64,000 bases of DNA, from the NCBI RefSeq assembly GCF_003334335.1, contig NZ_QOWQ01000002.1; one strand, given 5' to 3'. The position numbers were made by a program, and so were the translations under genes. Below, piece by piece: positions 21,404 through 24,240 of the stretch; position 1 is the first letter of the stretch, and each line of letters begins with the position of its first letter. The notes beneath the pieces were generated by a model that saw only the letters and a list, made by a program, of their open reading frames with translations, searched no databases and was not told the origin of the DNA. This DNA is from Escherichia coli (GTDB lineage Bacteria > Pseudomonadota > Gammaproteobacteria > Enterobacterales > Enterobacteriaceae).

Positions 21404-22375
21404 TTATTTACTGTTGTATAACAAAGTTATAACACCATCCACTACCTGAGCCATTTTCTGATAATTCAATCTGTCTGCGGTATCACCGGGCAAGTGGTAT
21501 TGTTTATTACGATAAAAAGCGGTGTCAGTAATCATTATGGCGGGAATATCGTGTTGCCAATAATTCAGGTGGTCAGAGAAATCAATACCGGGAATAAACC
21601 CTGGGGTATTCATAGAATAAACAGATAAATCCTGAGATGACAACAATGCCGCTTTTACCTGACGAACGGCGTTGATATCCTGTATTCTGCCGACCACGGC
21701 AATAAAGTCTCCCCGATCGGGATAAAGCCAGGACATTGCCGGGTAAGGGTAATTCTGGCTTCCAGGCGCAGAGTCGTAATAGCCAATCATCTCCAGTGCT
21801 ATCATTAATTTCACTGGACGCTCAAGCGAAGCTGCATGCACCGCGCTCCCCATTTCATCGCTACGAAAGAAGGGCGGTTCTTCCGACGCATAGGCGACCA
21901 GCTGCACGCCTGTTTTCGGTACTTGCTGATGTAACAAACGTGCCAGTTCGAGTAATCCTGCCACACCGCTGGCGTTATCATCCGCGCCCGGCGTATAGGT
22001 CAATTGATCGTTTTCATAACTGCTGGCAGAGTCATAATGCGCACCAATAATAATCAGCAGTCCATCGGCAGGACCATAATCAGCAACAATGTTTTTGTAG
22101 GGGCCACCCGTAATGGGGACGTCCTGCGAGGTAACTCTGGCACCGCTACTGACAAAGACCTCTTTTATATATTCTGCGGACCTATTCAGATTATCAATAT
22201 TGTCGGCACTACGTGGATGCACAGTTTGTGTAAGATAACGAACTGTTTTTTCTAATTGCTCAGGACTTGCGTGTCGGGGCGTTGACGGTAATGCATTGAC
22301 CCAGGGTTGGTAAAAAATAATCATAGGGAGTAAAAACACAAATAATATAATAAAAGCAAAGATTATTTTTTTCAT
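21404..22375 (-). CDS. yfbL: Membrane-anchored M28-family metallopeptidase YfbL
   Basis: About 323 aa; N-terminal hydrophobic anchor; zinc-ligand motifs typical of M28 peptidases (HYDS, GADDNASGVAGLLE, ASEEPP); track starts 2 codons earlier. Confidence 0.8.
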   Translation of the reverse strand: MKKIIFAFIILFVFLLPMIIFYQPWVNALPSTPRHASPEQLEKTVRYLTQTVHPRSADNIDNLNRSAEYIKEVFVSSGARVTSQDVPITGGPYKNIVADYGPADGLLIIIGAHYDSASSYENDQLTYTPGADDNASGVAGLLELARLLHQQVPKTGVQLVAYASEEPPFFRSDEMGSAVHAASLERPVKLMIALEMIGYYDSAPGSQNYPYPAMSWLYPDRGDFIAVVGRIQDINAVRQVKAALLSSQDLSVYSMNTPGFIPGIDFSDHLNYWQHDIPAIMITDTAFYRNKQYHLPGDTADRLNYQKMAQVVDGVITLLYNSK

Positions 22376-22512
22376 ATGCAAATTATTAATGGGTTGCGTT
22401 GTTGAATCATTATTTGCTATGGGTTTCGATATTGTATTTTATTAAGATTAGCAGGATTATACAAAGAGTATATTTTATGTCTGGTGCCTGAGTTTATTTA
22501 AAAGGATTTTAT

Positions 22513-24240
22513 ATGCGAAATAAAAATATAATCATGTTGCTTATGAGTAGTTTGATTTTGTCAGGATGTGGGCCGCAACCTGAGAATAAGGAAAGTCAGC
22601 AACAACAACCCAGTACTCCCACAGAGCAGCAAGTGCTTGCCGCGCAGCAAGCTGCAATAAAAGAGGCTGAGCAAAGCGCCGCCGCCGCGAAAGCCTTGGC
22701 CCAGCAAGAAGTGCAACAATATTCAGACAAACAGGCTTTACAGGGGCGATTGCAGGAAGCGCCAACATTTGCAAGAGCGGCTAAAGCAAAAGCTACACAT
22801 ATCGCAAATCCAGGAACCGCTCGCTACCAGCAGTTCGATGATAATCCGGTTAAGCAGGTAGCGCAAAATCCGTTGGCGACGTTTAGTCTTGACGTTGACA
22901 CTGGCAGTTATGCGAATGTAAGGCGTTTCCTCAATCAAGGGCTGTTACCTCCGCCAGACGCTGTGCGGGTGGAGGAGATAGTCAATTATTTCCCGTCTGA
23001 TTGGGATATCAAAGACAAACAATCTATTCCGGCCTCTAAGCCAATACCTTTCGCTATGCGCTACGAATTGGCACCTGCACCATGGAATGAACAGCGAACA
23101 TTGCTGAAAGTTGATATCCTGGCGAAAGATCGCAAAAGTGAAGAGTTACCAGCTTCTAATCTGGTCTTTCTTATCGACACTTCTGGTTCAATGATTTCTG
23201 ATGAACGTTTGCCACTTATCCAGTCTTCGTTGAAATTATTGGTCAAAGAACTTCGTGAGCAGGATAACATTGCCATCGTGACCTACGCTGGCGACTCCCG
23301 TATTGCATTGCCTTCTATCTCCGGGAGTCATAAGGCGGAAATTAATGCCGCAATTGATTCGCTGGATGCCGAAGGCAGTACCAATGGCGGTGCCGGGCTG
23401 GAACTGGCTTATCAGCAGGCGACGAAGGGGTTTATTAAGGGCGGCATCAATCGCATTTTATTAGCCACTGACGGTGACTTTAACGTTGGCATTGACGATC
23501 CAAAATCGATTGAATCAATGGTCAAAAAACAGCGGGAGTCTGGTGTTACTCTGTCGACGTTTGGCGTGGGGAATAGCAATTACAACGAGGCAATGATGGT
23601 GCGAATTGCCGATGTTGGTAACGGCAACTACAGCTACATTGATACCCTCTCTGAAGCGCAGAAAGTATTGAATAGTGAAATGCGGCAGATGTTGATTACC
23701 GTAGCAAAAGATGTCAAAGCGCAAATTGAGTTTAACCCCGCGTGGGTAACGGAATACCGTCAGATTGGTTATGAAAAGCGCCAACTTCGGGTGGAACATT
23801 TTAATAACGACAACGTTGATGCAGGGGATATAGGCGCAGGCAAACATATAACGTTGTTATTCGAATTAACGCTGAACGGGCAAAAAGCATCAATTGATAA
23901 GTTACGCTATGCCCCGGATAACAAATTAGCGAAATCGGACAAAACGAAAGAACTGGCCTGGTTAAAAATTCGCTGGAAATACCCGCAGGGAAAAGAAAGT
24001 CAGTTAGTTGAATTCCCGCTGGGGCCAACAATAAACGCGCCCTCTGAAGATATGCGTTTTCGCGCAGCAGTAGCTGCATATGGGCAAAAGTTACGCGGTT
24101 CTGAATACCTGAACAATACCTCCTGGCAGCAGATCAAACAGTGGGCTCAGCAGGCAAAAGGGGAAGATCCACAGGGTTACAGGGCGGAATTTATTCGCCT
24201 GATTGAACTGGCGGATGGTGTGACTGACATCAGTCAGTGA
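22513..24240 (+). CDS. yfbK: Lipoprotein with von Willebrand factor A (vWA) domain YfbK
   Basis: 575 aa; signal peptide with lipobox LSGC; Gln/Ala-rich low-complexity linker; vWA MIDAS motif DTSGSM. Confidence 0.85.
   Translation: MRNKNIIMLLMSSLILSGCGPQPENKESQQQQPSTPTEQQVLAAQQAAIKEAEQSAAAAKALAQQEVQQYSDKQALQGRLQEAPTFARAAKAKATHIANPGTARYQQFDDNPVKQVAQNPLATFSLDVDTGSYANVRRFLNQGLLPPPDAVRVEEIVNYFPSDWDIKDKQSIPASKPIPFAMRYELAPAPWNEQRTLLKVDILAKDRKSEELPASNLVFLIDTSGSMISDERLPLIQSSLKLLVKELREQDNIAIVTYAGDSRIALPSISGSHKAEINAAIDSLDAEGSTNGGAGLELAYQQATKGFIKGGINRILLATDGDFNVGIDDPKSIESMVKKQRESGVTLSTFGVGNSNYNEAMMVRIADVGNGNYSYIDTLSEAQKVLNSEMRQMLITVAKDVKAQIEFNPAWVTEYRQIGYEKRQLRVEHFNNDNVDAGDIGAGKHITLLFELTLNGQKASIDKLRYAPDNKLAKSDKTKELAWLKIRWKYPQGKESQLVEFPLGPTINAPSEDMRFRAAVAAYGQKLRGSEYLNNTSWQQIKQWAQQAKGEDPQGYRAEFIRLIELADGVTDISQ

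Follow-up and report, generated by a model that had tools for sequence, protein, structure and literature searches.

The locus described here lies in a 64,000-nucleotide stretch of Escherichia coli DNA (assembly GCF_003334335.1, contig NZ_QOWQ01000002.1; in the following, the window). It consists of two divergently oriented genes, yfbK and yfbL, which code for a predicted lipoprotein with a vWA (von Willebrand factor A) domain and for a predicted membrane-anchored M28 peptidase, respectively. An initial reading of the sequence (the original prediction) had taken the short region between the gene starts as a shared promoter and thus as a sign of co-regulation. Combining comparative genomics, structure comparison and analysis of the spacer, we arrive at a different interpretation: with a probability of roughly 60 %, yfbK and yfbL are functionally independent envelope genes that do not form a functional unit and merely lie side by side in an island of low G+C content, bounded by nuoN and rbn, whose content varies among strains.

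Organization of the locus

The window is E. coli K-12-like chromosome, and its segment 21200-24400 matches several E. coli chromosomes with 100 % identity. In these identical chromosomes, RefSeq labels yfbL as an M28 family metallopeptidase (972 nt) and yfbK as a vWA domain-containing protein (1728 nt). The corresponding open reading frames (ORFs) of the window, 21404..22381 or, from an internal start, 21404..22375 on the minus strand and 22513..24240 on the plus strand, make 21404-24240 the exact outer boundaries of the two genes. On one side, the pair borders on yfbM (followed by yfbN, yfbO, yfbP and nuoN); the other side carries elaD, rbn, elaA, elaB and the men genes. Both are already-annotated genes of E. 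coli K-12 (YfbK b2270, YfbL b2271), whose domains and predicted locations are standard annotation. Databases describe yfbK as a 'putative lipoprotein', which is also listed among the predicted K-12 lipoproteins, and yfbL as a 'putative membrane-associated peptidase'. The gene identities proposed originally, a vWA lipoprotein with a metal-ion-dependent adhesion site (MIDAS) and a divergent M28 zinc peptidase, agree with these descriptions. The YfbL protein of the window is about 99.7 % identical to the RefSeq protein and falls into a cluster of 5,384 members at 99 % identity.

The length of the spacer had to be revised. Using the RefSeq ATG start at 22375 it amounts to 137 bp, while the previously reported 131 bp would require an upstream TTG at 22381. 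E. albertii lacks a corresponding TTG and instead has, as read by eye, an in-frame stop just upstream of the ATG. The coordinates of all features are summarized in Table 1.

Table 1. Coordinates of genes, protein domains and predicted regulatory elements at the yfbL-yfbK locus (window positions).
Feature	Position	Strand	Details and source
yfbL coding sequence	21404..22375	-	323 aa, ATG at 22375, stop included; ORF and RefSeq annotation
YfbL M28 catalytic domain	21425..22093	-	residues 95-317; Pfam PF04389, 8.1e-25
YfbL N-terminal hydrophobic helix	22310..22372	-	residues 2-22; AlphaFold2; probably uncleaved signal anchor
Divergent spacer	22376..22512		137 bp, 27.7 % G+C; poorly conserved among enterobacterial orthologues
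Sigma-70-like match toward yfbL	22456..22483	-	-35 CAGACA, 16 nt, -10 TATAAT; 10/12; consensus scan, prediction
-10-like box TATATT, candidate yfbK promoter element	22469..22474	+	by eye; about 40 nt upstream of the yfbK start; without -35 match
yfbK ribosome-binding site AAAAGGA	22500..22506	+	sole invariant block, 7/7 enterobacterial spacers
yfbK coding sequence	22513..24240	+	575 aa, stop included; ORF and RefSeq annotation
YfbK signal peptide and lipobox L-S-G-C (Cys19)	22513..22569	+	translation; N-terminus MRNKNIIMLLMSSLILSGC, then G (Gly at +2)
YfbK Gln/Ala-rich low-complexity tether	22570..22812	+	residues 20-100; translation
YfbK vWF_A N-terminal domain	22816..23109	+	residues 102-199; Pfam PF12450, 2e-32; pLDDT (predicted local distance difference test) mostly about 90 or higher
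YfbK VWA domain	23158..23661	+	residues 216-383; Pfam PF00092, 4.2e-22; MIDAS D-T-S-G-S at 23176-23190
YfbK_C domain (formerly DUF3520)	23689..24216	+	residues 393-568; Pfam PF12034, 6e-66
Hairpin between convergent yfbK and elaD	24261..24294		perfect 15-bp stem, TTCGACCAGTCAGCA tatt TGCTGACTGGTCGAA; self-inverted BLAST match

Conservation of the gene pair outside E. coli

To follow the gene pair beyond E. coli, we scanned one genome per species using a YfbK alignment as query and examined the 80 YfbK loci among the matches listed, a scope that applies to all locus counts below. At least 2 kb of upstream sequence was available for 71 of them and at least 2 kb on both sides for 65. YfbK relatives were taken from a library clustered at 50 %; the best 120 matches of a direct search were all E. 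coli alleles. Salmonella was absent from the listed matches of the locus scan and was found by a search seeded with the orthologue L085.

Using tblastn, a YfbL homologue flanking yfbK was detected in just two loci, those of E. albertii and Superficieibacter electus, each time in divergent orientation, and in none of the flanks of the remaining 78 loci. The view from the other gene was similar. For YfbL orthologues with 68 % and 62 % identity on enterobacterial metagenome contigs, the site is again that of rbn/elaA/elaB and the neighbour is an orthologue of YfbK, and none of five YfbL orthologues with 50-55 % identity from other proteobacteria has a vWA neighbour. Adjacency across distant taxa was thus not observed, and the pair is kept only within the Enterobacteriaceae, at one syntenic site.

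Salmonella provides examples of both arrangements. The divergent pair is present in S. enterica subsp. salamae. In the main S. enterica type (YfbK cluster with 2,821 members), yfbK adjoins nuoN and yfbL is absent: the 888-bp gap between nuoN and yfbK (positions 4113-5000 of the haplotype L093) contains no called gene and does not resemble yfbL. Over about 670 bp, this gap is also unrelated to the sequence of subspecies salamae.

Presence and absence of both genes within E. coli

For the distribution within the species, 5,426 complete E. coli genomes were searched with a chimera of yfbL-internal and yfbK-internal segments, because a coverage of at least 80 % of the 3.2-kb region cannot separate an intact from an internally deleted yfbL. 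Of these, 2,517 (46 %) contained both segments, 804 (about 15 %) only one and 2,105 (39 %) neither. Where a single segment was left, it was yfbL in six of seven sampled rows, for example in the strains LF82 and 536. The deletion of yfbK covers about 22645-24200 of the window with identical endpoints in two haplotypes, and the deletion within yfbL covers 21789-22114. Altogether, yfbK is deleted in about 54 % and yfbL internally deleted in about 39 % of the complete genomes.

All four possible combinations, both genes, yfbL alone, yfbK alone and neither gene, thus occur among the genomes of E. coli and Salmonella, and the two genes are independently distributed. Since either gene can be retained or deleted independently, the pairing is an ordinary one. 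Such a distribution had been named beforehand as one of the outcomes that would speak against co-regulation.

In the haplotype that carries the yfbL deletion, the 5' part of yfbL together with the spacer (22115-22642, compared with 3581-4089 of L001) shares only 79 % identity with K-12; in another haplotype, identity over the complete yfbM-yfbL stretch is about 91 %. Such unusually deep allelic divergence within one species suggests old recombination or relaxed selection.

Both genes are located in an island (18000-25800) with a G+C content of 35-47 %, compared to a window mean of 51 %, which carries yfbP, yfbO, yfbN, yfbM, yfbL, yfbK and elaD between nuoN and rbn. Its content varies among strains: some E. 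coli lack yfbP, yfbO and yfbN, so that nuoN adjoins yfbM, and one of these has an ISEcB1 insertion. Directly downstream of yfbK in the K-12 chromosome lies elaD (24311-25522, 35 % G+C), encoding a deubiquitinase-like protein of the eukaryote-targeting effector type. The orthologous loci of Salmonella and of the Superficieibacter-like type lack this gene and have a CheW-response-regulator fusion gene in its place. The hairpin between yfbK and elaD has no clear T-run on either side; all yfbK-deleted strains have kept it along with the final 40 nt of yfbK. A snoRNA-like Rfam match on this hairpin, the only match at a permissive threshold, was dismissed as chance. A reading of the region as a defence island was dropped, since the PADLOC models of anti-phage defence gave no match for YfbK, YfbL, YfbM, YfbN or ElaD.

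These features could also mean that yfbK and yfbL are decaying passengers of a horizontally acquired island, which contribute nothing significant to E. coli K-12 and are retained there for historical reasons. The base composition of the island and the frequent deletions are in line with this, as are insertion sequences in some strains and, as described below, very low read counts and a yfbL gene without a recognisable Shine-Dalgarno sequence. On the other hand, both reading frames are intact and every catalytic and MIDAS residue is kept, the YfbL family is still about 50 % identical across proteobacterial classes, and phenotypes have been reported for mutants of both genes, namely a complemented resistance to phage N4 for yfbL and effects on rifampin persistence and on the recipient role in conjugation for yfbK. 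We regard decay as an improbable explanation.

The divergent spacer

A consensus scan of the spacer gave one sigma-70-like match, directed at yfbL; across the whole scanned region 12 such matches were found, with 6.4 expected from shuffled sequence. Toward yfbK, no match in the spacer reached the threshold of the scan. The candidate -10 box of yfbK was recognized by eye, and an A/T-rich TATAAT-like box occurs at a similar distance in the orthologous spacers, including that of Salmonella without yfbL, although it is loosely conserved. The candidate -10 boxes of both genes are about 10 bp apart. yfbK and yfbL probably have their own, closely spaced back-to-back promoters.

This compact arrangement within 137 bp speaks for a co-regulated divergent pair, or 'divergon', in which both products would act together, for instance with the peptidase processing the vWA lipoprotein or its ligand. 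However, an alignment of seven enterobacterial spacers, which is a weak set for footprinting, revealed no conserved operator-like element, as conservation was confined to the yfbK ribosome-binding site and the -10-like box. Moreover, the yfbK-proximal part of the spacer is kept in Salmonella without yfbL. For yfbL itself, no Shine-Dalgarno sequence could be recognized.

Several other elements of the spacer were examined. A 19-nt direct repeat (22389-22407 ATGGGTTGCGTTGTTGAAT and 22419-22437 ATGGGTTTCGATATTGTAT; 79 % identical, 30-nt spacing) might be a regulator site or due to chance and can be recognised only loosely in E. albertii. A 23-nt inverted repeat joining both gene starts was discarded, as it results from the Lys-rich N-termini of both signal peptides being written in A/T-rich codons. 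A published genomic SELEX (systematic evolution of ligands by exponential enrichment) peak of LldR lies inside yfbK and outside the shared spacer, and was not regarded as a target in that study. No known RNA family matched the spacer when Rfam was searched with a permissive threshold. In a published expression table, the mean read counts are 27.7 for yfbL and 162 for yfbK, compared to 20,896 for bamC, and both genes appear to be weakly expressed in laboratory culture.

Relatives of YfbK are linked to ECF sigma factors

While yfbL is rarely found next to yfbK relatives, a gene for an extracytoplasmic function (ECF) sigma factor on the same strand and within 1.5 kb is present in 49 of the 80 loci and is thereby the dominant conserved neighbour. 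It is located downstream in 34 of these 49 loci, with a gap of 87-213 bp in the seven loci measured. In 30 loci, the YfbK relative has an N-terminal lipobox and an ECF sigma factor gene lies nearby.

A lipoprotein of the YfbK type with an ECF sigma factor gene 87-213 bp downstream on the same strand was seen in many gammaproteobacteria, among them Pseudomonas (L008, L010, L011, L013, L020, L026 and others), Colwellia (L029) and Shewanella (L074). In 11 loci, a small protein of about 200 amino acids with one hydrophobic segment follows. This looks like an operon of lipoprotein sensor, sigma factor and anti-sigma factor, which differs from the fused anti-sigma factor of ECF289. A link between DUF3520-vWA proteins and ECF289 has been published, with the module described as the sensor part of the anti-sigma factor (2021, PMC7826278).

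In E. coli, no gene for an ECF sigma or anti-sigma factor is located beside yfbK, whose neighbours are yfbL and elaD, and no sigma factor gene is annotated in the 21-kb region examined. E. coli YfbK is therefore most readily viewed as a sigma-less orphan of an envelope-sensing family that usually feeds an ECF sigma/anti-sigma switch but lacks a sigma partner in the Enterobacteriaceae.

YfbK: a predicted lipoprotein with a conserved MIDAS module

The LSGC motif at the N-terminus of YfbK fits the lipobox pattern [LVI][ASTVI][GAS]C, in agreement with the original prediction, and a lipobox is also present in the orthologues of E. albertii, Superficieibacter and the two metagenomic enterobacteria. 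According to the Lol sorting rule, Asp at position +2 retains a lipoprotein in the inner membrane, and the Gly at +2 of YfbK accordingly predicts sorting to the outer membrane as far as the sequence goes. YfbK would then be exported, lipidated at Cys19 and most likely be held as a periplasmic lipoprotein in the outer membrane.

The Gln/Ala-rich linker noted before was recovered at about residues 20-100. In the AlphaFold2 model, residues 38-79 form one helix, predicted with low to moderate confidence, while the pLDDT falls below 50 at 73-101. Its length differs among E. coli alleles, resulting in proteins of 575 to about 615 amino acids, and in two orthologues (L084, L085) it is much shorter and not Gln/Ala-rich. 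The segment thus behaves like a tether and not like a domain.

The family architecture behind the tether is complete, with vWF_A, VWA and YfbK_C in this order, and the same Pfam set is found on all close homologues. The motif DTSGSM occupies residues 222-227 (23176-23193), and the MIDAS proved to be intact as claimed: D222, S224, S226, T290 and D320 are invariant among 21 relatives with 42-52 % identity. Foldseek searches with the AlphaFold2 model (pLDDT 82) matched ArnB, the Sec23/24 trunk, a Catenulispora vWA protein, the inter-alpha-inhibitor heavy chain 1 (ITIH1), pilus-tip adhesins and BatB, all of them binding modules; the VWA domain fold was also matched by the vWA domain of the anthrax toxin receptor. 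The conserved module of beta-sandwich, vWA and YfbK_C on its variable tether of about 80 residues is probably a metal-ion-dependent binding device, in which the MIDAS cation would capture an acidic group of a protein or another ligand.

YfbL: a predicted two-zinc aminopeptidase

The metal site of YfbL was mapped by hand from the alignment of its Protein Data Bank (PDB) match to the Aeromonas aminopeptidase. The ligands H113, D133, E166, E195 and H294 as well as the general base E165 are invariant in 21 orthologues with 49-67 % identity. The zinc ligands of an M28 peptidase reported earlier are therefore present as a complete five-ligand site, with the correction that site 4 is a Glu (E195) and not the canonical Asp. 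This conservative replacement holds across the orthologous family.

Fold comparison with the AlphaFold2 model (pLDDT 88) did not separate two enzyme classes, as type II glutaminyl cyclases and M28 leucine aminopeptidases matched about equally well (1amp, 1qq9 and 6ica at E-values of about 1e-15). A cyclase of type II (M28-like) would act on exported proteins that begin with Gln or Glu and turn this residue into pyroglutamate. In favour of such an activity, the top fold matches are the Bacteroides, Tannerella and Porphyromonas cyclases (4fuu/7d1d, 6qro, 6qql), level with true aminopeptidases, and glutaminyl cyclases also occur among the sequence matches. Since cyclases retain the five canonical ligand positions, the ligands alone do not discriminate. 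The residues next to them do: in cyclases, a Thr before site 2 and a Leu after site 4 form a hydrogen-bond bridge that excludes the second zinc (PMC7522609). YfbL lacks both bridge residues and has D132-D133 and E195-M196 at these positions, like 1amp and the two-zinc aminopeptidases in general (D116-D117 and D179-M180) and in contrast to the T-D and D-L of the cyclases. The nearest sequence matches in NCBIfam and the PDB are likewise LapA and Aeromonas-type aminopeptidases. The D-D and E-M flanks thus favour an aminopeptidase, and we consider a glutaminyl cyclase quite unlikely.

A hydrophobic N-terminal segment followed by a conserved Q-P motif is present in 21 of 21 YfbL orthologues. E. coli and E. 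albertii have V-N-A, a possible signal-peptidase site, at the position where other enterobacterial orthologues have V-x-P; the motif is more variable elsewhere. As the Ala-type cleavage motif is not conserved, an uncleaved anchor is favoured over a cleaved signal peptide. With such an anchor, YfbL would be fixed to the inner membrane while its catalytic domain faces the periplasm, and it is most likely a two-zinc M28 aminopeptidase that would trim the N-termini of envelope peptides or proteins.

Reported phenotypes of the mutants

In a 2025 preprint, yfbL and yfbO mutants were resistant to phage N4 in an N4-specific manner, with plasmid-borne complementation of each; neither the text nor the hit tables of this preprint mention yfbK. 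The position of yfbO, converted from a matching annotated record, is about 19005-19427, and the gene is not adjacent to yfbL, with yfbM and yfbN in between. One speculative possibility is that YfbL matures some factor of the N4 entry pathway. For yfbK, mutants lost rifampin-induced persistence in a persister screen and were poor conjugation recipients.

Neighbours or functional unit

Three points weigh against the interpretation of yfbK and yfbL as independent neighbours. First, the genes are adjacent and divergent in six enterobacterial lineages (E. coli, E. albertii, Superficieibacter, two metagenomic enterobacteria and S. enterica subsp. salamae; 62-83 % YfbL identity), despite changing flanking genes. 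Secondly, essentially all E. coli genomes with yfbK keep an intact yfbL segment, as a dependence of YfbK on YfbL predicts. Two sequential deletions, however, explain this nested pattern equally well, so that it carries no statistical weight for a dependence. Thirdly, the N4 phenotype comes from one unreviewed preprint.

The first two observations also belong to the case for a co-regulated divergent pair, as does the short spacer. Against it stand the missing adjacency outside the Enterobacteriaceae, from the side of either protein, the existence of yfbL-only and yfbK-only genomes, the lack of a conserved operator-like element in the seven spacers compared, the absence of yfbK from N4 hit lists that contain yfbL, and the pairing of YfbK relatives with ECF sigma factors instead. 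We consider a joint function of the pair unlikely, and the co-regulation originally deduced from the shared promoter region is left without support by the distant loci (0/78 and 0/5), the single-gene genomes and the spacer comparison.

A further scenario would be specific to the Enterobacteriaceae: the ECF-linked sensor module of YfbK would have parted from its sigma factor and been coupled to YfbL instead, resulting in a lineage-specific envelope module that conditions the entry of phage N4. If this were true, YfbL could, for example, trim an envelope protein bound by YfbK, and the retention of yfbL in yfbK genomes would reflect a real dependence. To us, this appears very unlikely.

The reading of functionally independent neighbours thus remains the preferred one. 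As a discovery, the locus carries little weight, its genes being annotated already, and what it offers is a negative result: the inference from divergent neighbours with a short spacer to co-regulated partners fails here under comparative genomics. Two by-products may be of use for work on these genes. YfbK may be an orphaned envelope sensor, given that its module normally accompanies ECF sigma factors, and the presence/absence polymorphism of the locus in E. coli and Salmonella provides natural knock-outs.

Comparison with known systems

Both genes are the same as K-12 yfbK (b2270) and yfbL (b2271, M28 family metallopeptidase), without any difference. The former, with the architecture PF12450, PF00092 and PF12034, has given its name to the Pfam family. 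YfbL has the fold of the two-zinc M28 aminopeptidases of Aeromonas (Vibrio) proteolytica and Streptomyces griseus (TM-score about 0.65-0.7) and shares their ligand and general-base positions. It differs from them in a sequence identity of only about 20 %, in Glu for Asp at site 4, in about 30 extra domain residues and in its N-terminal membrane helix, which takes the place of a cleaved pro-peptide.

The best structural matches of YfbK are vWA modules with a flanking beta-sandwich, namely ITIH1, archaeal ArnB, the Sec23/24 trunk and Bacteroides BatB (Foldseek E-values of about 1e-17 to 1e-11). These are metal-dependent binding proteins and not enzymes. Their identity to YfbK is only 12-24 %, and their partners and cellular contexts are different. 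The ECF289 systems have the conserved core module in common with YfbK (42-53 % identity over residues of about 100-570). Apart from the missing sigma and anti-sigma genes, the difference lies in the N-terminus: instead of the cytoplasmic anti-sigma domain and transmembrane segment of the ECF289 type, E. coli YfbK carries a lipoprotein signal peptide.

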